Positions 4,578 to 63,641 of a DNA stretch of 64,000 nt are shown in pieces (positions within the stretch are counted from its first letter, which is position 1; each line of letters starts with the position of its first letter). Under the pieces are notes generated by a model, which saw only the letters and a list, made by a program, of their open reading frames with translations, ran no database searches and had not been told where the DNA came from. Made by a program: the position numbers and the translations under genes. The DNA is from Chiloscyllium plagiosum (Eukaryota): contig NC_057718.1 of assembly GCF_004010195.1 (NCBI RefSeq), positions 60,922,073 through 60,986,072 of the forward strand, in the 5' to 3' direction.

Positions 4578-5325
4578 TTGCGTTTTTTTTTCCTGACAAA
4601 TCACTGCCCCATTAATCTATTCTCAATCATCAGCAAAATGATCGAAGGAATCATAGACAGTGCTATCAAATGGAACTTATTCACCAATAACCTGCTCACA
4701 ATTTATAGTTTGGGTTCTCCCAGAACAGCTGGACTCCACAGACATCATTATAGCCTAGCTCTAAACATGGACAAAGGAGTTGAATTCCAGAGATGATGTG
4801 AGAGTGGCTGCCCTTCACATTAAGACAGCATTTTAGTGAGTATGAAAATAAGCCTCATCACAATTTAGATCAATAGCAATCAAAGAAATCACTGCTGTTT
4901 GGAGTCATACAGAGCACAAAGGAAGGGTATGGTTGTAACAGGCCAAACATCCCAGCCCAAAGCATCACTGCAAGAGTTCCTCAGGATAGTCTGCTCGGAC
5001 CAACTATCTTCAGCTATTTTGTCAATTTCCTCCCTCCTTCACAAGGCCAGAAATGGGATGTTCACTAATGACTGCACAGGATTAGGCACCATTCACAATT
5101 CCTCAAATACTGAAATAGTTTGTGCTTGCATGCAGCAAGATTTGGGTAATATTCAGAGTTATGCTGAAGAGTAACAAGTAACATTTGTGTCACAAAAGTT
5201 CCAGTCAATGACAATCTCCAACAAGAGAGAATCTAACTATTGAGGCAAAAGTGAGGACTGCAGATGCTGGAGATTAGAGTCAAGGTTAGAGTGGTGCTGG
5301 TCAGGCAGCATCCGAGGAGCAGGAA

Positions 5326-5361
5326 AATCGATGTTTCGGGCAGGAGCCCTTCATCAGGAAT
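5326..5361 (-). ncRNA. Minimal type I hammerhead ribozyme motif (PLE), stem III altered by a CpG-type change
   Basis: Reverse strand reads attc CTGATGA a gggc tcct gccc GAAAC ATC gatt. Confidence 0.65.
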
Positions 5362-5873
5362 GAGGCTGGAAGCCTCTGGGTTGGAGAGATAAATGGGAGG
5401 GGGTGGGGCTCGGGAGAATTTAGTTGAGAGTGCAATAGGTGTATGGAGGAAGTGGTAGATGTGATAGGTCGGAGAGGAGTGTGGAGCTGGAAGGTGGGAA
5501 GGAAGATTGACAGGTGGGACAAGTCATGAGGATGGTGCTGAGCTGGAAGGTTGGAACTGGAGTAAGATGGGGGGAGGAGAAATGAGGAAACTAGTGAAGT
5601 CCACATTGATGCCCTGGGGTTGAAAAGTTCTGAGGTGGAAGATGAAGCGTTCTTTCTCCAGGGGTCGGGTCATGAGGGAGTGGTGGTGGAGGAGGCCCAG
5701 GACCTGCATGTCCTCAGCAGAATGGAGGGGGGGAGGGCGAAGTTGAAATGTTCGGTTACGGGACGGTGAGGTTGATTGGTACGGTGTCCCGGAGATATTC
5801 CCTGAAGTGCGAGAAGGTGTCCAGTCTCCCCAGTGTAAAGGAGACCACATTGGGAGCAACGGATGCAATAAAT

Positions 5874-20043: not shown

Positions 20044-20257
20044 GAAGCAAGTGAGGACTGCAGATGCTGGAGATCAGAGTCAAAAGGTGTGGTATTGGAA
20101 AAGCACAGCCGGTCAGGCAGCATCCAAGGAACAGGAGAGTCGATGCTTCGAGCACAAGCTCTTCATTCTTGATGAAGAGCTTATGCTTGGAACGTCAACT
20201 CTCCTGCTCCTCGGATGCTGCCTGACCGGCTGTGCTTTTCCAATACCACACCTTTTG
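20044..20257. mobile_element. PLE-derived fold-back insertion
   Basis: Inverted arms 20080-20166 and 20172-20258 meet at the hammerhead core; 14 bp TSD with 1 mismatch at 20030-20043 and 20258-20271. Confidence 0.88.
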
Positions 20258-23200
20258 AAACTGGTGAAGTAATCTATTAAAATAATTATAAACTAGAACA
20301 CAATATATTTTACATATGTTAAATACCCAATATATTTATTGATTATAAAAGCCCATTTTAAGTTAAATTTCAAATTATGCAGCATGTTCATGACAAGACT
20401 GGAGACAGGTGCTGACTGAAAAAAAAGATAAGATGATTCTGTAACTTACATTACCAACAAATTATGATGGTTTTGCATTGTAGCAGCATTATTTTGATGA
20501 TTTAAATTCAAGATTGAGGCAATAAATCTGCCTAATATAAGTTTACAATCTACTTCAAAGATAGTGTCATCAACAACACCTTCCAAAAATATAATTCATT
20601 TTAATGTCCTTTGTTATTGTGTATTCCTGTTGATTTTTGAGGCTTTTTGCACTAAAACTGTATGCACTTATGATACCTCTAGAGGTACAGAATTGAAGAA
20701 ATTATGAAGCTACATAGTTCAAATTAATATTGATAGAAGCAATAATTAACCTAAAGTGCTTCAGTGAACTGGGCATTTGATCTGTGCATGTTAATTCAAC
20801 CTCTGCTAGGCTGAGTAACTGCTTCAATCTAATTCCCTTATATTGCTTTTATATTATATACAGCCACTTCAGCTAGAAACAGCGCTCTTTGTCTTCACTG
20901 CCACTGTCTAAGATTTTGCATTTCAGGATGGATTTCAAAGTAATGCCAGCAATCCAGAAACTACTGCCATTTGGAACAATCGATTGTTTAAAAATCACAA
21001 TTATGACTTTCATTTTCTGACTGAGGTTCAAGCCTCGACATCTATGGAAAATCAATCGAGAATAAGAATGTGAAAACGGCATTCCTAGCCTGTACAGGTA
21101 GGCTGATTATCATAATAGATAGTGGTCCCCTGCCTCAAAGCTACGGGTATTGGTTGTTATGTTTACCACCATCAGTATGGTCCTTCCTGTGGTGTGAATG
21201 GAGTGGGTGTCTATTTTCTTTTCGTATATTTGGATATCCTAATGCTGCCTCATTCAGTTCACAAAGTCTGAATTGATAATTTCATCAGCACTAACTTAAC
21301 ATCAAACTGTTGGAATTAAGAAGGATGTTCAATTATATTTATTTAGCACTGATTATTTCTTTTAAATTCCATTTCTGGTAATCTCTTCACTATCAGAGCA
21401 ACATTCTTTTAATATTATTCAATGATGTTGTAAAAAATCAAAAACAAATGACAGTAAATGAACAATGTGCAGAAGAATGTGTTGTCAAGGATCATAGTGA
21501 GTCTATCTCCCAGCTAAGTTCTTCATGTTTCAAGCAAATCTACCTTATAACTGGAAGAAATTGAAAGTTGTTCACATAATTTCAGTTTGTTATTCTTTTT
21601 TAAATGGCTTTGTGCTCTTTTAGTATGAAAACCTCATCACCAATATAAATGCATGATATATATTGATCCATGAATGGCCTGTTCAACAATGTGCAAATAT
21701 TCATGTCCAATCCACAAGGCATTACTGAACCTTCAAGGCAACTGTAGCCAGCCAGCTACTGTGGAGCTTCTAGGAGTTAATGAGTGACCAGGGTCAAGAA
21801 TAATATACTGTCAAAGTTCATTCTGGTTTACTCCAACGTTATCAGTAGCTTTCATATTGCCCTTCCTCCCACCTTTGGCAAAGAAAACATATCAAGATGG
21901 TTGCCATGGAGCTGAAGAGATTTGCATGTATGTTATCTGTCTATTTAAATAAATTCTTATGGCTTATAACTACTACAATGCATCTTCTTCCAGGAGCCTC
22001 AGCTCATTGCTAATTTATGGTCAGCTTAGTGTGTCTGGGTTTGATGATACCATCTGAAGCACGTCGTCTAGACAATTTCAAAAGTACACTGAACAGGGAA
22101 CTTCAGTGAAAATGTATAATGCAAATAAATACCAAAATGCTATTGGAGACAGCATTCTTTACAAACCATTTTCATCTCATTCCAAACTGAAATCACACTT
22201 AATAAGTAATTATTTCAAGTGACAAAACAACATTATTAAAAACGGCTGTGAATTAGCATCAAAACCACCTTTGTTTTTCATGCCTTTTGTATTTTAGCAT
22301 CTGCGTTGCAGCCAAAACTACCATTGCCATTATTTAAGCCACTTTAACCAGGAAGTACATTAACCTTTCACCTCTTGGTATTAAGTGTTTAACTCTTTGA
22401 GCCCTGACTAAGAATGTCACCAAAAATATAATAGTCATGGAAAGATGGTGTTTTTGTTTATTTTACACATGAAATGTGAGTGAAGCTGTTCTCAATGCTT
22501 TGACTTAGTTCTCTATTTTTATAATGTACAGGATGAGATATTAGATTACTTGCACAATTATATCAAAACACAATAGTTTTCCTTATTTATTCTGGACTAT
22601 CAGTAGGAAATTTAGTGCATGTTTTCAGGAAGACCCTCCAAACCGTGAGCGACAAGGCTAGCAGCAGGGTTTTCAGCTCAATTAGGATCAGAGGTAGATA
22701 ATGTTAGAAAAGTTTTGTTGGGTTGGGGTCGCAGCCAAATGTGTAAATAGGAATCGGCAGCAAAGGTGCAGTGTTAGGCTCAGCAGGCACCCCCTTTTCC
22801 AATACTATGTCTCTCAATCAGGCACCAACACTTGGTAGTCAGTACCTGTGGCCCCAGAAGACAGTCACCTGGGCTTGTCTAAGGGTGTAAGCATTGTAAC
22901 TGCTGCCAGGACTGCTGTTGTTTGTGGTCTCATACAAGCTGGACATTAATCAAATTGTATCCCTTCCTTTGTCATCTTCCATTATCCATGAATTTATGTT
23001 GTTCTCTACTTCTATATGCACTCTCTGAGCGCATCTGGTTGCTCAGACCCACTTCCTTGACTATTCCAGCTTCCATTCTGCCATCGTACACAATCCTTAT
23101 CCTCTCACTGTTCTCGACAGAGTCCAGCAGGGCACCACCACCAATGTCAAATGTCCCAGCAGTCTTGTTTCACTGACCTTTTTCACTGAGTGCACTGAGA

Positions 23201-23471: not shown

Positions 23472-23848
23472 ATTCATTCATGGGATGAGGACATCACTGG
23501 CTAGGGCAGCATTTATTGCCCATCCCTAATTACTATGTTGCTGTGGCTCTACAGTCAGACCAGTAAAGATTAGAGGCAAAAAAACTGCAGATCTGAAGAA
23601 ACGTTGAATTCTCCAACTCCTGATGCTGCCTGGCTTGCTGCATTACATCAATAAAGATGGCAGTTTCCCTCCCTAAAGAACATGAGTGAACCAAATGATT
23701 TTCCATCAATTCATGGTCATCATTAGAATTTTAATTCCAGTGAATTTAAATTCCACTATCTGCTGTGGCAGCACTTGAGCTTATATCCCCCTGCACATTA
23801 CCTGGGATCACTGGATTAACAGTCCAGTGATAATACCATTAGGCCACC
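23472..23848 (-). mobile_element. tRNA-headed SINE sharing head and tail with the family B LINE
   Basis: Reverse strand reads ggtggcctaatggtattatcactggactgttaatccag...gaccatgaa...ggttcactcatg...gagccacagcaa, joined to aattagggatgggcaataaatgc...atgaatgaat. Confidence 0.85.
23571..23651. mobile_element. Small PLE-derived insertion nested in the SINE
   Basis: aaaactgcagat followed by inverted ctgaagaaacgttg...gatgctgcctggcttgctg; 7 bp TSD taaagat at 23564-23570 and 23652-23658. Confidence 0.65.
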
Positions 23849-25246: not shown

Positions 25247-25700
25247 GGGCAGCACAGTGGCTCAGTGGTTAGCACTGTTGCCTCACAGTGCCAGGGAACT
25301 AGGTTTGATTCCAGTCCCGGGGAACTGTCTGTGTGGAGCTTGCAAATTCTTCTTTGTATGCTTCCTCCTGGTACTCTGGTTTCCTCACACAGTCCTGAAG
25401 AAGGACTCATGCCCGAAACGTCGATTCTCCTGCTTCTTGGATGCTGCTTGACCTGCTGCGCTTTTCCAGCAACACATTTTCAGCTCTGATCTCCAGCATC
25501 TGCAGTCCTCACTTTCTCCTTCCTCACACAGTCCACAGGTTAGTTAGCAGAGTAGGTGAATTGGCCATGCTAAATTGCCATGTAGTGTCCAGCAATGTAT
25601 AGGCTGGGTGGGTTAACCACAGTAAGTATGCTCTTCAGAAGGTTGGTGCAGACTCAATGAGCCAAGTGGCTTCTATCTGCACTTTATGGGTCCTATGAGA
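25247..25700 (+). mobile_element. HE1-type SINE, interrupted by a PLE mini-insertion
   Basis: A box TGGCTCAGTGG, ttggccatgctaaattgcc core, decayed tail. Confidence 0.88.
25396..25519 (+). mobile_element. PLE mini-insertion beginning at a hammerhead core
   Basis: (c)TGAAGAaggactcatgcccGAAACGTCgatt...gtcctcactttctcc; perfect 15 bp TSD ttcctcacacagtcc at 25381-25395 and 25520-25534. Confidence 0.9.
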
Positions 25701-35310: not shown

Positions 35311-35589
35311 TCAAAGTTTGTGAGAAGATTTGTAGCTTGGATACTCGTTGTTGTAGTTCTGTTCGTCGAGCTGGGAATTTGTGTTGCAGACATTTCGTCC
35401 CCTGTCTAGGTGATATCCTCAGTGTTTGGGAGCCTCTTGTGAAGCGCTTCTGTGATGTTTCCTCCGGAGGAGCAAATGCCAGAGGAAACACCACAGAATC
35501 GCTTCACAGGAGGCTCCCAAGGATGTCACCTAGACAGGGGACGAAACGTCTGCAACACAAATTCCCAGCTCGGCGAACAGAACCACAAC
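35311..35589. mobile_element. PLE-derived fold-back insertion inside CR1 ORF2, with hammerhead motif
   Basis: Inverted arms around 35470; reverse-strand motif CTGAGGAtatcacctagacaggggacGAAATGTC at ~35385-35425; 12 bp TSD with 1 mismatch at 35299-35310 and 35590-35601. Confidence 0.85.
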
Positions 35590-35951
35590 AAGGTTATAAG
35601 AGATAGGATTTATAACCATCTAGAAAAGAATAATCTGATCAGGGACAGTCAGCATGATTTTGCGAAGGATAGGTCGTGCCTAACAAATCTTATTGAGTTT
35701 TTTGACAAAGTGACCAAACAGGTAGATGAGAGTAAACCGGTTGATGTGGTGTATATGGATTTCAGCAAGGTGTTCGATAAGGTTCCCCATAGTAGGCTAT
35801 CACACAAAATGCGGAGGAATGGGATTGTGGGAGACATAGCAGTTTGGATCAGTAATTGGCTTGCTGAAAGAAAACAGAGGGTTGTAGTTGATGGAACATG
35901 TTCATCTTGGTGTCCAGTTACTAGTGGCGTACCGCAATGGTCAGTGTTGGG

Positions 35952-41297: not shown

Positions 41298-42005
41298 CAC
41301 GCTGTAGTTCTGTGGTTCTAAATAACCTCACTGGTGCAGCCACTGTTAGTGCAGCAGGCCCCTGCACTGGGACCAAACCAACCATCGTCATCACCTCCTA
41401 AGTCAGGTGCCCAAACATAGCTGTGGGCCTGGAGCCTCAGCTCAGCCTGGGGATGTGGCCTGGGCCCTGTTTCTTTCTCGCTGGGAGACCTTGGGCTAAG
41501 GTGGAGCCGCGTGTGCATCGTCCTGGGGATTGCTGCCGTCACCACTGGACACTCAGAGTTGTTGAGTGCATTCTGCAGATCTGCAGAAGGTGAGTTCAAT
41601 GGCAGAGTTCGAGTGAGGAGATAGAATAAAGCACTTACCCATTCAGAGATTAAAAAAGAACAACAAAATCCCTTGTGGTGCTGCTGTTATTCCTCTTGGT
41701 TTGTGAAACAGCACTGATCTGGGCCCTGTCTGGGTCCAGGCTGCCTGGTATGGTACAGCAGCCTTCTTTCTCAGTCCACAGCAAAGAGAGCAGCACTCCT
41801 CCCCAATATCCCATCCACCAAATACTCCAGGTTCACTACTCCAAAGCAGGGGCCAGGTTCTCTTTTCCCTGACATCTTATGAACAAAGATGTTGGAGCAG
41901 GCAACATGAAAGGCAACTCCTGGCTTCCAATGATTGAACTTGTACTCAGCTGGGGTTTAAATATGAGATCTGTGTCGTGATCAGCACACATTGTTCACAC
42001 ACATT

Positions 42006-42131
42006 CCTGATGAAGAGCTTATGCTCAAAACGTCAACTCTCCTGCTCCTCGGATGCTGCCTGACCGGCTGTGCTTTTCCAGCACCACACTTTTTGACTCT
42101 GATCTCCAGCATCTGGAGTCCTCACTTTCTC
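42006..42131 (+). mobile_element. PLE mini-insertion beginning at a hammerhead core
   Basis: cCTGATGAagagcttatgctcAAAACGTC (GAAA mutated)...gtcctcactttctc; TSD cacacatt at 41998-42005 and 42132-42139. Confidence 0.85.
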
Positions 42132-42500
42132 CACACATTGCCTCTGAAGCTGCACAGTTATACAAGAAGAGTACCATAGAGCCCAGAAACATAAGCAACA
42201 AGGTGAGCAGTGGAAGATTGCATGAGACAAGTCATCTTGGGTCAATGTGGGAAATCATGAAAATAACATTTGGCCAAAAAGTCGGAGAATTCAGCCCTAA
42301 GTCTGAAGAACTGACAATGGGAAATAAAAGTACAGTAGAAGAATTTAATATGTATTTTGCATCAGTCTTCACCGTGGAGTATACATTCAAGAAATGGAAG
42401 GGATAGAGGAGTTCAGGAAATTTATAATCACTCGAAGAGTATAGTCATTAGGCAGAGTCAGCATGGTTTCTGAAAGGGAAATCATTTTTAGCCAAACTAC

Positions 42501-46757: not shown

Positions 46758-47046
46758 CAGAAATCACATAACACCAGGTTAGAGTCCAACAGGTTAATTT
46801 GGAAGCACTAGCTTTTGGAGCACTGCTCCTTCATCAGTGGTTGTGGAGAGTAAGATTGTAAGACACAGAATTATAACTTACTCTCTTGAATCTTGTAACT
46901 TGAATTTACTCTCCACAACCACCTGATGAAGGAGCATCGCTCCGAAAGCTAGTGTGCTTCCAAATAAACCTATTGGACTATAACCTGGTGTTGCATGATT
47001 TCTAACTTTGTACATCCCAGTCCAACACCGGCACCTCCAAATCATG
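46758..47046. mobile_element. PLE-derived fold-back insertion (AGCT-hammerhead family)
   Basis: Inverted arms ~46761-46853 and ~46905-47001; 12 bp TSD with 1 mismatch at 46746-46757 and 47047-47058. Confidence 0.85.
46920..46954 (+). ncRNA. Minimal type I hammerhead ribozyme, intact core
   Basis: cac CTGATGA a ggagc atc gctcc GAA AGCT A gtg: stem I cac/gtg, stem II ggagc/gctcc, palindromic loopless stem III, CUA cleavage triplet. Confidence 0.8.
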
Positions 47047-48759
47047 ACTTTTCATTTCTGTCAATATTGTAATACTTTGAAATATTGTTGCCAGGCTTAA
47101 ATGTAGGTTCATAATCAGTCTTTGTATACATTCTCTCATGTGTAATCCACATGACTGACCTTTAACAAGGTCTAAATGAATATACAACTTTTCTTTCTCA
47201 CCATGTCTTTGTACTTTTATTTCAACCAGTGAAATTTCCCAGGATGGATAAATATTTCTTTGAGATTTTCTAACATGATTTTCCTTTCTTGGTAAAATTA
47301 GTAAACAAAAAAAGAGATGTGTCCCTTTGTTGATCAGTTGCTGTGCAGATTATTTTTAAAGAACATGCCAAGGTAGATTTGTTTATTGGTTTCATTTTGA
47401 AAATCATAAAAGGCTATTTCAGGAGTTGTGATCCTGCTTTAACTGTCGATAATGCAACAAAACCTTTTGCAGTTTCATGTCAAAAGGTTGAAGCTAACAT
47501 AAAACTACTTTTCAGCAATTTTTATCTAATCCTGTAACCTTTTATTACCTTCAAATATTTCCATTATTTTGACAAGTTTCCAAAGGCCATAGCATTTTGT
47601 TATGTTCTTTTTGTGTGGAAATATAAGCAAAATAATGACTAAGCGTGACTTACAGCTATATCATGTTGGTTTTGAGTATGGATGGGAGGGGAGGTGACAT
47701 GATGGTGTTAAGATATAGAGACAATCTGAAACTATTACACTATGATATGATACTTTTGTTAGCTTCCATACATTAAATATGTGTGTCACATGGCACTAAA
47801 GAATTCAATGCAAGTTTTTACTTAATATCTACATATGTACACTACACTTACAGGCACTTATGTGTGTGAGATCAAGTTTAGCAATTCAAACATAGTGCAA
47901 CATGCTTTCCTTAGCATGTCATGCCACACCAGGAGAGAGAGCAGCAAAAGGGGGAATTTCATGTCATGTCTCACAGGATAGGTGCAATCTACCTTTAAGG
48001 GACAGACTTAGGTGTTTTCACCATGTCTTAGCATGTGGCTGAATGGCATAAAGTTCAGTCTGCACCATTAGGTCATGCACGACATTACAAATATGTCCTT
48101 AAAGGTACATCATACATTTGCTGCAAGACACTGAACAACATCACCCTTTTCTTCAAAGGTAAGAAATACCGATCCCTGTGTATAGGTACATGTTGTCAAT
48201 TCAACAGGCATGTTGACAATATTAATAATTGAAACTTGGAACCCATCCTGAGCCCCAAGCCCAGCTGGAACAGTACATGCTATTTGCAATTGCTCTTGGC
48301 TGACAAAATGGTTATCTTGCCCTGGTTGCTGTCATTCAGTATCATCACACACTCATTATCACCAGAATTTTCTTACTCGCTCCCTGTATGCAAGATTGGC
48401 AGGTCATACATTGATCTGAGCTGGCCTCAGTAACTCAATAATGTAGCATCATGATCAGTAATAACTTCATGCAACCTGGGCTAATTATATTTCTTAGAAA
48501 ACATTCCTTGTATCTAGGTATTTGTGCCTGAATTTCTGACTCACATTCTGGCTGTGGTAATTTTCTACCTGCTCATTGGTGCAGGGTTGGTTTCATTTCC
48601 CTCTCTCTTTAGAAGAGAAAGGTTACAGGCTCTTTTATTTTCACCACCCTGGGCATTGTTTGAATCTTCTGAAGGGTTACAATGCTGAGATCTGGTACTG
48701 TTAGTCCTGCCACTGCTGGATCATTACTTTCCACCAGGTAGAAGATTTATAAGGTCTGT

Positions 48760-49570
48760 ATGTTCTACTGCATGAGTCACAAACATTAGTGGGGAGGTAC
48801 AGCACTTGATTACGAAGGCCAAAGTTACCTTTTATTATGAAAGGAATTGAACATTTATATGGGGTATTGGTGAGACCACATCTCCAAACTGTATGCACTT
48901 TTGGGGGAAAGTGAGGACTGCAGATGCTGGAGATCAGAGCTGAAAATGTGCTGCTGGAAAAGCTCAGCAGGTCAGGCAGCATCCAAGGAGCAGGGCATGA
49001 GCCCTTCTTCAGCGTGTATGCACTTTTGGTCATCTTATTTAAGAAAATATCTCTATGACTCTATAAAATATGTGAAAGTATCAGAGGTGGTTCAAAGGAG
49101 GTTTACTAGATTGATATGTGGAATGGGTGGGTTGTCTTGCGAGAAAAGATTGGAAAGGTAGTCTCGTTTTCCCTCGAGTTTAAAAGAGCAAGAGGGGATT
49201 TGATTAGAGATTGCAAGATCGCAAGTGGCCTTGACAAGGCGGATTATCGAGAGGATAGTTATTATTGTGGCTTAATCTAAAATAGGGAATGCTGTTTCCC
49301 TGGAGGTTGCCAGTTTAGGACAGAGATGACAGGATTTTATTTCCTCTCTTGGAGGATTATGTGACTTTAGAAATTCCTGCCTCTTAAAGCAATGGAGGTG
49401 GTGTTATTGAATAGTTTTATGCTACAGGTAGATAATCTCTCAGTAGATGAGGGAATGAAAGAGTATTGGGAATAGATGGGAATGCAGAATTTTGGACACA
49501 ACCAAATCAGTCATGGTTTTATTGAATATGGAGTAGACCATTCAGTCAAGGATTCCTGATTTAAATGTTT
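48760..49570 (+). mobile_element. Old CR1 3' fragment, interrupted
   Basis: Translation EVVQRRFTRLICGMGGLSCEKRLER and a CR1-type 3' UTR. Confidence 0.8.
48905..49014 (-). mobile_element. PLE mini-insertion beginning at a hammerhead core (internal deletion)
   Basis: Reverse strand cgCTGAAGAagggctcatgccc...gtcctcactttccc; perfect 15 bp TSD tgtatgcacttttgg at 48890-48904 and 49015-49029. Confidence 0.88.
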
Positions 49571-50292: not shown

Positions 50293-50381
50293 AGTTAAAA
50301 ATAACACAACACCAGGTTATAGTCCTACAGGTTTATTTGGAAGCACTAGCTTTCGGAGCAGTGCTCCTTTATCAGGTGGTT
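50293..50381 (-). mobile_element. Single-arm PLE terminal fragment (AGCT-hammerhead family)
   Basis: Reverse strand cacCTGATAAaggagcactgctccGAAAGCTAgtg (core G mutated). Confidence 0.8.
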
Positions 50382-50384
50382 ATA

Positions 50385-50770
50385 ATACAATACAACACAG
50401 GCCTTCAAGCCCACCAAACCTGCACTGATTCCTATCCTTATTCTGATCCCTACTTATTGCCCATACACAGTTTCTATCAATCAGTTTGCCTCCCATTCAT
50501 CCATCTATCTAGATACACCTTAAACATTGCTAATGTGCCTCTTCCACCCTCTCCACTGACAGTGCATTCCAGACACCTACCACCCTTTGTGTAAAATATT
50601 TTTAATGCACTTTTTTCCTGAACTTTCTGCCTCTCACCTTGAATCAATGGCCTTTTGCAGTTGACCTTTCTACCCTAGGAAAAAGTCTTTGACTATCCAC
50701 CCTATCTATGCCTCATAATTTAGTGGACCTCTTTCAGGTCTCTCATTCAGCCCCTGTCTTTCCATAAAAA
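50385..50770 (-). mobile_element. CR1 3' fragment
   Basis: CR1-type 3' UTR and the end of ORF2 on the reverse strand. Confidence 0.75.
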
Positions 50771-58204: not shown

Positions 58205-58800
58205 GGCACTGGAAATTAGAAATTGCTGGGAAAATCTCCACAGGTACGGCAGCATCTGTGGAGACAAGGTAGGTAAAAACAACGACTGCAGATGCTGGAA
58301 ACCAGATTCTGGATTAGTGGTGCTGGAAGAGCACAGCAGTTCAGGCAGCACTGCTCCTCGGATGCTGCCTGAACTGCTGTGTTCTTCCAGCACCACTAAT
58401 CCAGAATCTGTGGAGAGAAGGCAGACTTAACGTTTCATGCCCAGAGCACTTTCTTCCATGTCCTTACCCCAAACCCCACACACCAGGCCTTGTCATCACA
58501 TGGTTTCCTATCCCAAACAGCCCATTATCAGCCACTAACCATCCCCATTAGCAGCTATTCATTATCCCAAGGTGGCCTTTACCCACTCAGTTGTCTGCTT
58601 AATTGTTTTTCTCTCTCTCTGGACTCCATTTCTACCTATTGTTTACTTATTCCCCCTTTCCCCTTCCCCACTCCCATCTTCAACATACATTTTCCTAGCT
58701 ACAATCAGTTTGATGGATCACTGGACCCAAAACACTAACTCTGCTTTCTATCTGCAGATGCTGCCTGACCTGCTGAGTTTTACCAGCAATTTCTGATCTT
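58205..58800. mobile_element. Older PLE-derived fold-back element
   Basis: Left arm gaaattgctggg...gcagcatctg and right arm cagatgctgcctgacctgctgagttttaccagcaatttc flank a pyrimidine-rich PLE 3' region. Confidence 0.7.
58270..58405. mobile_element. Younger PLE-derived hairpin insertion nested in the older one
   Basis: 48 bp inverted arms 58303-58350 and 58363-58410 with 1 mismatch; 16 bp TSD with 1 mismatch at 58254-58269 and 58406-58421. Confidence 0.85.
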
Positions 58801-61340: not shown

Positions 61341-62744
61341 TAAACCTTTTGAACTTCTGGATCATTTCCTTTTGGGGTAATGGTACAAGACCACAATGAG
61401 AAGGGCAGTTCCTGTCTTGTAGTGCTGTGGAGCCGATGTTAATAGCATCAGCCTCGTAAAGTCCCAGCAGCAATGAGTCTCCCCCTTCCCTGCTATGTGG
61501 TTCTAAGATATAGTCCCCACAGTGGCTGGTGACATATATAATGAGGTGAAGAGTGGAAGACTGGTATGAAAAAAGTAGCTATGTGCCCAGCCAAGCTGGA
61601 CGCTATGAATCTTATTACAGAAAATATGTAGTGAAAACATGGAAGATTCAGCCTTTAATAAATGATTGGCCCAATATTTTGAATTATTTCCACTAAGGAC
61701 ATTCCTTGACAATTGATAGTCACAGGTGTAAAAGCCCAGCCTTGTATGTGGCAGGATTCCAAACAGTGACCCGAGAGACAAACATTGGGTACATGGCTTC
61801 AACATTAGCTAGCAAAAAACATTGTTGTCAATAAATATTAAAACCATTTTCAAACACTTGCACTCTGATATCCTGTCAGTTATTTTCATTGAATTTACTC
61901 TAAAACCACAATGACCATTTTAAATGCTTATGCAAGCACTGCAACTTATAGTACATTAGAAAAATATATTGCTCATAAACTGAGCATCAATGTTTGATAC
62001 ATAAGTATCGGATCAGCAGTGATTAAATGAAGAAACACAATGAGATAAATTGCCATGATATCTGCTATCTCTGAAGAGTGTGCTTAATTTCTTTCTTCAC
62101 AACAGCTACCAATGTCAGTGACATTGTGTGTGCATACTCATGGTGCTGACCTTCATTCCTTGCCTCTGAATTCTGCTTCAAGTGATTGCCAGGAATCCAG
62201 GGGCAAAGGTCAGAGTTCAGAATCTGAAGTTCACAGACAGTGTGTTACTGACATTGATCTCAACTACAACAACTGTTAGATCCTGATCTTTCTGAATAGC
62301 ACAAAAAACATTTTTAACAAGTGCAACCATGTACAGGTACAAGTGATGGCACATCCATAATTTTGGGGTACAGTAGTTTTAAGGTAAAATGAGAGAAAAA
62401 TTGTTGCTTTTGATGTCAGCTTTTGGAGGTAGGTCTCCAAGCAGTTGATTTGTGAGTACATTCTTTGGATAAGAGCCACATGGGAATATTGTGAACAGCC
62501 TTGGAGTGGTGCACCAGTTGGCAATTTATCGAATTTAAAGCAGTATTGAACAGGAACCATACAACCAGTGACTGATAAAGCTGACTCTTAAATGATGTAA
62601 ACATTATGGTCAGAATGCATAGGTTTTGTATCAAGTATACAAATGACAATGTTGGTGTCATAAAATAAAAAAATGCCACAAGACTAATAGGAATTTACAC
62701 AAAAGAAACAAGGTTCACATTGTTTTGCCAATTAAAATTACATC

Positions 62745-63034
62745 TTGATTTGGAGGTGCCAGTGTTGGACTGGGGTGTACAAAGTTAAAAACCACACAAC
62801 ACCAGTCTCTAGTCCAACAGGTTTATTTGGAAGCACTAACTTTCGTAGTGCTGCTCCTTCATCAGGTGGTTGTGGATTATAAGATCATAAGTCACAGAAT
62901 TTATAGTAAACGTTTGCATCATACTGTAAACCTCTACTATAAATTCTGTGTCTTATACTCCACCTGATGAAGGAGCAGCATTCCGAAAGCTAGTACTTCC
63001 AAATAAACCTGTTGGACTATAACCTGGTGTTATG
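62745..63034. mobile_element. PLE-derived fold-back insertion (AGCT-hammerhead family)
   Basis: Inverted arms; hammerhead cacCTGATGAaggagcagcattccGAAAGCTAgt at 62961-62995; perfect 12 bp TSD taaaattacatc at 62733-62744 and 63035-63046. Confidence 0.9.
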
Positions 63035-63466
63035 TAAAATTACATCAGTAGTTACAATTGCTACATACTGTGTCACAATAAATTAATGTTTTGTATGGAA
63101 TATTTAGTTGCATATTGTATGTTAAATTAATGTATATTGTATAATAAGTACAATTGCTTATTGTACATTAAGGTATTGTTATCTTGCAAGTTAGGTCCAG
63201 TTATTATAACACAGAGTAATAACATTTCAGTCTCACAGACTAGTGTGTGGTCAAATATGGTGAGTGATACTGTCACATGGAAATCATGTTCAGAGCATTG
63301 CTTCACATTATCTGGCGATCCGGCATGGCACCCTCTCCACTTGGTATGGCACTGTCTCAGCCTGGTGTGGTAATCTCTTGAGGAGAAAGTGAGGTCTGCA
63401 GATGCTGGAGATCAGAGATGGAAATGTGTTGCTGGAAAAGCGCAGCAGGTCAGGCAGCATCTAGGA

Positions 63467-63503
63467 GAATCGACGTTTCGGGCATTAGCCCTTCTTCAGG
63501 AAT
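63467..63503 (-). ncRNA. Minimal type I hammerhead ribozyme, intact core
   Basis: Reverse strand attc CTGAAGA a gggc taat gccc GAA ACGT C gatt: palindromic loopless stem III, GUC cleavage triplet. Confidence 0.8.
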
Positions 63504-63641
63504 GAGGAAAGTTGGTCCAGCAGGCTAAGATAAAAGATAGGGAGGAGGGACTTGGGGGAGGGGCGTCGGAAATGTGATAGGTGGAAAGAGGTCAAGGTGA
63601 GGGTGATAGGTCAGACGGGGGTGGGGGCGGAGAGGTCGGGA

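Follow-up and report, generated by a model that had tools for sequence, protein, structure and literature searches.

The ends of Penelope-like elements (PLEs) have been described from several sides. The available text of earlier reports already documents minimal hammerhead ribozymes in the pseudo-LTRs (pLTRs; PMC4209133), a tail together with an inverted copy (PMC8557442), a start site within the pLTR (PMC2377424), TATA- and initiator-like pLTR motifs as well as solo pLTRs (PMC3846280), and PLE-derived retrozymes (bioRxiv 10.64898/2026.07.22.740005). Internal start sites of the reverse transcriptase (RT) are also known, from in vitro work in which two such starts bound the tail, both target strands are cut and extended, uncut RNA is the substrate and a dimer is predicted (PMC11167929). 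The origin of the head-to-head repeats, one-sided tails and pseudo-LTRs of PLEs is debated, and antisense self-priming, endonuclease resolution and ribozyme-made circles have each been invoked. In a literature search that took in few subscription papers and only part of the supplements, we found no statement of run-off at a capped start or of a strict pairing of start sites.

Here we analyze short, duplicated-target insertions ("minis") in a 64,000-nucleotide stretch of the Chiloscyllium plagiosum genome (the window; NC_057718.1, positions 60,922,073 to 60,986,072) together with a genome-wide sample. Judged by their sequence, the minis are the hammerhead-plus-tail end of an abundant Neptune-type PLE; they are junk fragments of a known class, a by-product and not a mobile ribozyme. 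We consider it probable that they are dead-end run-off cDNAs of uncut, capped PLE RNA, reaching from an internal start to A(-4).

Insertions in the window

Numbering starts from the C of CTGA (+1), which puts the predicted hammerhead cut after +28. The three minis reported in the initial annotation were all recovered, with target-site duplications (TSDs) of 15, 8 and 15 bp. Mini A (25396-25519, 124 bp, plus strand) lies between exact 15-bp TSD copies at 25381-25395 and 25520-25534. Its CTGA begins at 25395, the final 3 nt of the left TSD being common to the element (-2 to +1). Mini A is nested in a different dispersed repeat (25247-25395 and from 25535 onward), which has many copies in the window and which we take to resemble a shark tRNA-derived SINE. 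The predicted minimal type-I hammerhead core of a PLE terminus occupies 25395-25422 on the plus strand and consists of CUGAAGA, a bulged A, stem II (with one mismatch) and GAAAC-GUC, with the predicted cut after 25422; the layout is as in the available text of PMC4209133. The PLE 5′ leader or tail follows (25423-25519, plus strand) up to the long RT start site at +125, while the short start site is at about 25483-25490 (about +90). An Rfam scan of the window returned no RNA family and no match at gathering score, the hammerhead included. In mini A (25409-25501) and in L112, the stem II loop contains an ATG from which a frame of 30 codons runs; the TGA that closes it is present in all copies listed, a second short frame comes next, and the long ORF begins near +163.

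Mini B (42006-42131, plus strand) belongs to an older subfamily and has an 8-bp TSD (41998-42005 and 42132-42139), with CTGA at 42007. Since its TSD end also matches element positions -5 to -2 and a 9-bp duplication further left was called as an alternative, its 5′ end may lie anywhere from -1 to about -6. Mini C (48905-49014, minus strand) has an exact 15-bp TSD and begins 2 nt ahead of CTGA. The chance of an exact repeat within 10 nt on either side of both ends is about 1e-6 for 15 bp and about 1e-2 for 8 bp. It should be noted that an internal deletion takes GAAAC-GUC out of mini C, so that this copy does not span the cut site; the copies otherwise span GUC and have their 5′ ends upstream of the cut.

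The same family has a fold-back at 20044-20258, in which a long arm (+123) and a short arm meet head to head at the core, and a related subfamily has a small one at 23571-23648, with stem II deleted and a 10-bp TSD containing one mismatch. The strand switch at the core motif that had been noted for both is confirmed, lying at CTGA in the smaller one. There is also a long, read-through copy (63381-63640, minus strand) that comprises upstream 3′ UTR, a TATA-like motif about 30 nt ahead of A(-4), the hammerhead and the tail, and an older long copy with the same terminus (5248-5430, minus strand). An older-subfamily fold-back at 58303-58410 is without the hammerhead, its arms meeting at +35/+48; this junction recurs in several sample copies and forms a second hotspot, with GCTGC/GCAGC-type microhomology.

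A second hammerhead PLE family is represented by two fold-backs, each combining a long with a short arm, and by a solo (46759-47047, 62743-63035 and 50293-50389). A third is present as a fold-back at 35348-35591, with ends at +112 and about +75; its long copies elsewhere have TATAAA about 53 nt ahead of CTGA.

The parent element

Long copies bear 3′ UTR upstream of the mini sequence, and other copies run on from +125 into the start of a long ORF. The mini sequence is therefore the 5′ leader of the element as well as the end of its pseudo-LTR. The ORF directly upstream of the terminus in L036 contains a C-x4-C-x2-C linker and, at its end, a GIY-YIG-like stretch (Pfam E-value 0.005, under the curated cut-off), and a DKG-type RT motif is visible in broken copies. 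According to the available text of PMC8557442, a CX2-5CxxC linker ahead of GIY-YIG marks the Neptune/Nematis type, and the L036 linker has this form. The terminus has the composition of an EN+ PLE, namely a pLTR with a minimal hammerhead, a tail, an inverted copy and a TSD, as seen from two ends about 35 bp apart, 50 fold-backs and TSDs of mostly 13-17 bp. Across subfamilies the core of the predicted ribozyme is kept, while stem II is variable.

Abundance and 5′ boundary of the copies

We sampled the 3.56-Gb genome through 140 stretches of 10 kb, picked irrespective of what they contain (1,343,163 non-N bases), using as query only the part downstream of the cut so that the 5′ ends stay unbiased. 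From 235 modules, 190 were kept, for which we required 85% identity to the closest long copy, extension as far as +60 and a junction free of N, and 45 were dropped. With a few rows reclassified by hand, the 190 comprise 95 fold-back arms from 50 insertions, 58 solos, 34 long copies and 3 others; 25 of the solos have a TSD of 8 bp or more. This amounts to about 43 solos, 37 fold-backs and 25 long copies per Mb, each on the order of 1e5 genome-wide.

The 5′ ends pile up at one place. At the level of insertions (n=145), the per-nucleotide hazard of ending is 0.097 at +1 to -8, as against 0.018 at +2 to +10, 0.003-0.005 at +11 to +59 and 0.008-0.011 upstream of -8. Among the 123 insertions with ends between +59 and -100, 61 end within the nine positions from +1 to -8, with the mode at -4/-3, and only 2 within 2 nt of the GUC cut; for the TSD-flanked solos alone, 18 of 25 end at +1 to -8. 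In a minority of arms (55 of 190, 28%) the end falls downstream of the core start by over 1 nt, and a second cluster of ends occupies +32 to +59. The second family has a peak at -1 to -12 (19 of 49 at risk), with a hazard of 0.040 versus 0.005-0.021 elsewhere.

The initial annotation had placed the start within about 2 nt of the core. This is true of the three minis, but the genome-wide mode is at -4/-3 and not at 0-2 nt, and the closer apparent start arises in part because TSD ends share letters with the element. The annotation had also asked for a histogram of 5′ boundaries, setting an even spread or a peak at the cleavage site against its main branch. The ends are neither evenly spread nor gathered at GUC, which excludes both outcomes and favors that branch.

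We propose the following course of events. A(-4), which lies in an initiator-like TCATTCC about 30 nt past a TATA-like motif, would be a Pol II start. RT would begin within the leader of the uncut, capped RNA, at a fixed site some 90 or 125 bases in, and run off the RNA 5′ end four bases before the hammerhead core, copying the cap and so giving rise to an extra G. Staggered nicks in the target would each prime a cDNA. Joined to the target, a run-off cDNA would yield a solo mini; joined head to head with a second cDNA, begun at the opposite nick and at the alternative start site, it would yield a fold-back; and by landing again on an RNA it would yield short tandem repeats or ORF-start chimeras. 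For long copies, the most likely start would be the tail copy that a read-through transcript carries at its 3′ end.

Probable reverse transcription start sites and proposed fate of the cDNA

The common 3′ end given earlier for the minis, CTTTCTCC, does not hold throughout, as 8 of the 25 TSD-flanked solos stop at a second site near +90. Ends at +125 and near +90 number 17:8 among TSD solos and 17:17 among long copies. Fold-backs join one short and one long end in 46 of 50 cases, where 50% is expected (p about 2e-10 versus independent choice; the short class takes in a few eroded arms), and in 37 of 37 of those bearing TSDs. Such strict pairing points to priming from both nicks, with one start site each. 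Most simply, a single RNA would be the template for priming at both nicks, and both cDNAs would run off its end and then be joined. The arms also match at two informative columns (17/17 and 20/20 pairs), an agreement that later homogenization could also yield. For the second family, short/long pairing was seen in 15 of the 19 candidate pairs listed, some of which are not true pairs. The earlier suggestion of an internal priming site some 100 nt beyond the ribozyme is supported, and the lizard PLE study that it invoked is PMC11167929.

In many insertions an arbitrary piece of ORF start or leader is joined to a module beginning at about -4, which indicates that run-off cDNA can re-land on RNA. 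In the 22 loci listed of 30, the restarted piece stops again at -4 to +1, and none of the 22 runs into the 3′ UTR. In five of the 30 ORF-start loci (L091, L098, L099, L109 and L114), the jump to the hammerhead module is made from the same place, about 73 nt beyond the tail. This spot adjoins a short sequence like the module 5′ end, as in a microhomology-guided landing, and since the query ended there a selection bias is possible. There are also 215 short leader duplications, with restarts favoring +31, which is 3 nt beyond the predicted cut, and +39/40, which is about 12 nt beyond it. Among the 100 listed of these 215, the left partner ends, scored by eye, at +31 in 23 and at +28 in 3, with a cluster at +39/40. 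A footprint of RNA 3′ ends at the GUC cut was therefore rejected.

In principle the mini might instead be an obligatory first intermediate. A telomerase-related RT dimer would use two fixed sites on a single capped RNA to prime both nicks and make strong-stop cDNAs, one of which would move to the 3′ RNA repeat, between the start and the ribozyme cut, in a retrovirus-like first jump that regenerates the pseudo-LTRs. We regard this extension as doubtful. The cap-G footprint of a strand transfer was sought in the long copies and is absent from them, and together with the 0 of 22 listed restarts that run into the 3′ UTR this leaves retrovirus-like transfer to the 3′ repeat unsupported, although a precise transfer would leave no trace. 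The term "first-step products", used of the minis in the initial annotation, hence suits them as run-off products; of an onward jump to the 3′ repeat there is no sign.

For the fold-backs only, a single cDNA could snap back, or the RNA could prime itself on an antisense template as set out in the available text of PMC3846280, with the short end produced by endonuclease resolution (PMC8557442, available text). Overlaps of 1-4 nt are indeed frequent at the junctions, and the arms share diagnostic alleles. However, the short end is equally a normal 3′ end of solos (8/25) and long copies (17/34), where it is necessarily an RT start; -4 is reached by either arm; and use of both start sites with extension of both strands has been observed in vitro (PMC11167929). 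We thus consider the snap-back route unlikely, and prefer priming from both nicks.

An extra G and the probable transcription start

Directly before A(-4) the template has C, yet exact genome-wide counts, requiring a non-G at the preceding base, give G 3749, A 1249 and T 926 (window GC content 41%). Among the first 30 G loci the G is explained by an inverted arm in 6, by the TSD in 2 and by a long copy in 1; the remainder are unexplained by these, and two of the 30 are clean TSD-G-ATTCC junctions. Scored by eye, the untemplated base is G in 20 and A in 3 of 59 junctions with a known left partner, and G in 26, A in 4-5 and T in 2 of the first 100 of the 215 duplication rows, which overlap the former set. 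Read-through copies served as a control and show no such excess (by eye, C(-5) to G 18 and to A 24; C(-7) to G 20 and to A 19). One base downstream, the first 100 of 1652 rows read G in 31 and T in 69 (by eye; slippage may inflate T). TSD-flanked solos in the unselected sample seldom show a clean single G, many having microhomology or templated filler.

Upstream of the boundary, all but one of 26 long references, which cover several subfamilies, have TTAT(C/T)T at a distance of 26-34 nt from A(-4); as a TATA-like motif it is non-canonical. The TCATTCC around A(-4) fits the initiator consensus, and conservation of ATTC is also accounted for by hammerhead helix I. In the second family, ten references (long copies) have a canonical TATAAA at -36 to -40, and the short copies begin near -8, after an extra G and about 32 nt past TATAAA. 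At the position preceding A(-8), the first 100 rows, out of 945, have G in 54, A in 15 and T in 31 (by eye). CT accounts for 24 of the T rows, and the 8 such loci that we looked at are long copies; about 10 of 15 inspected G loci are not accounted for by a neighbor (by eye). Untemplated 5′ G in L1 and SVA insertions is ascribed to cap copying in the available text of PMC3287187.

Taken together, the absence of the G excess from read-through copies, the TATA-like motif and the second family indicate, on the genomic evidence, that the boundary is most likely a capped transcription start. The idea that a fixed boundary marks the RNA 5′ end is thereby supported, and of the two forms in which it had been offered, the evidence favors a capped start over an RT stop. 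This geometry is not universal, since D. virilis Penelope is transcribed from an internal promoter that lacks a TATA box, and its start lies far upstream of the hammerhead (PMC2377424 and PMC4209133, available text). We also searched RNA reads from a poly(A) single-cell run of a related organism for a start peak and found none. These reads lie on both strands and 94-96% of them run into unrelated sequence; they mostly represent host transcripts carrying genomic copies and are silent on the element's own RNA ends. Over -5 they show G in 6 of 11, a number too small for use.

The boundary would also fall at A(-4) if RT paused, or if repair trimmed the product, at hammerhead helix I of a longer RNA, A(-4) being the outer base of the predicted 4-bp helix. 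Pairing further upstream is predicted in single subfamilies, and the junctions abound in microhomology and templated filler. On the other hand, RT gets to -4 only once the ribozyme is unwound, and the three subfamilies that we folded have no common hairpin ending at -5. In addition, the G excess is confined to -5 and missing in read-through copies, the boundary of the second family shifts to about -8, about 32 nt past its TATAAA, and restarted segments halt at -4 to +1 a second time (in the 22 loci listed of 30). A pause or trimming is consequently quite unlikely.

The RNA 5′ end at -4 could also be an uncapped product of processing by a nuclease or by splicing; the extra C on the cDNA could then stem from C-biased terminal transferase activity at such an end. 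The run-off evidence fits this equally well, and the available text of PMC4209133 describes a D. virilis intron that ends at helix I. We nevertheless judge it very unlikely, as there is no conserved AG acceptor before -4 and no common first exon on the minis, no NUH triplet is kept at -5 across subfamilies, and the TATA/initiator spacing is found in two families. Two specific candidates were rejected: a splice acceptor at the boundary (AG at -33 in one subfamily only) and a type III hammerhead cutting at -5 (stem I of just 4 nt, no conserved NUH). A capped start at A(-4) thus remains our preferred reading of the boundary.

Relationship of the minis to other copies

As a second branch, the initial annotation had suggested a ribozyme-bearing, SINE-like family, i.e. 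minis that propagate themselves from their own uncleaved or religated circular RNA. Their very high copy number, near-fixed length and TSDs would suit a SINE or retrozyme, and PLE-derived retrozymes occur in vertebrates, one cartilaginous fish included (bioRxiv 10.64898/2026.07.22.740005, available text). The sample also holds one 286-bp tandem hammerhead array (L027:142-1085), in which each pLTR unit has a hammerhead in a retrozyme-like layout. Separately, a 40-bp five-fold tandem is present at G000:C7:77281153.

In a tree of 88 rows and 78 columns, in which many forks are open, the solos interleave with fold-back and long copies, and to the question raised earlier, whether minis form their own subfamilies, it gives a negative answer in that no separate mini clade is seen. 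Placing the 20 solos takes 16 label changes, compared to a shuffled mean of 17.7, with 88 of 500 shuffles as low; the starred branches alone force at least 8 changes, and identical rows and haplotypes are common to solo, long and fold-back copies. All three labels together are mildly clustered (31 versus 37.9 changes; 2 of 200 shuffles), probably owing to near-copies and one long-rich subfamily. Neither the tree nor the shared haplotypes reveal a lineage of the minis' own. The minis are single, span GUC and end at -4 instead of forming tandem, cut-to-cut monomers, a circle predicts no stop at -4, and they lack the upstream TATA-like region, all of which makes self-propagation highly improbable.

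Implications and comparison with known systems

Minis are a likely fossil record of the way in which PLEs, a poorly understood class, are copied, and they provide constraints on a genome scale. The template would be sense, uncut and probably capped, with run-off at the transcription start, and RT would start at two fixed sites, each used once per insertion. The extra G, in turn, offers a route to PLE start sites from DNA alone.

Priming from both nicks, as proposed here, is a feature of L1 twin priming, and retroviral minus-strand strong-stop DNA is a short cDNA that extends from an internal start to the RNA 5′ end, much as we propose for the minis. Unlike in L1, SVA and retroviruses, priming would here be internal and fixed, with no poly(A) or tRNA primer, and the arms overlap in sequence; in contrast to retroviral strong-stop DNA, no obligatory transfer to a 3′ repeat is shown here. 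Full-length L1/SVA insertions are similar in having a cap-derived G at the run-off end (PMC3287187, available text).

The non-LTR retrozymes in the available text of bioRxiv 10.64898/2026.07.22.740005 are likewise short, non-coding, hammerhead-bearing pLTR derivatives with many dispersed monomers, but they are defined by tandem units and circular RNA, whereas minis are single run-off pieces with no lineage of their own. The self-priming proposal of PMC3846280, in its available text, is antisense, whereas in our reading a single RNA is the template for priming at both nicks. The motif is the same as in the minimal type-I hammerheads that Cervera and de la Pena (2014, PMC4209133) described from metazoan PLEs; the available text reports mostly dispersed single copies, ascribed to truncated PLEs, with some close opposite-strand pairs. 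Cleavage, ligation and circular templates are proposed there, whereas the cut lies inside the present copies, whose ends are upstream of it.

The closest experimental system is PAc, a Poseidon element of Anolis carolinensis (Frangieh et al. 2024, PMC11167929), in which two internal RT starts, some 100 nt past the hammerhead, likewise flank the tail, both strands are cut and extended, and uncut RNA is used. It belongs to a different clade, and its ORF begins at stem II, where the present element has a 30-codon upstream frame and a long ORF near +163; the PAc study does not include mapping of the RNA 5′ end, run-off inserts or start-site pairing. Finally, the Neptune/Nematis EN+ PLEs (Craig et al. 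2021, PMC8557442, available text) share the CX2-5CxxC linker, the pLTR with hammerhead, the inverted 5′-truncated copy, a one-sided 30-40-bp tail and frequent truncation, and their C-terminal GIY-YIG has a candidate counterpart in the GIY-YIG-like stretch seen here. In the present element, by contrast with that account, truncation is non-random, in that most copies halt at a single site and have an extra G there. The asymmetry of the tail, for which PMC8557442 invokes endonuclease resolution, follows a strict short-plus-long rule.
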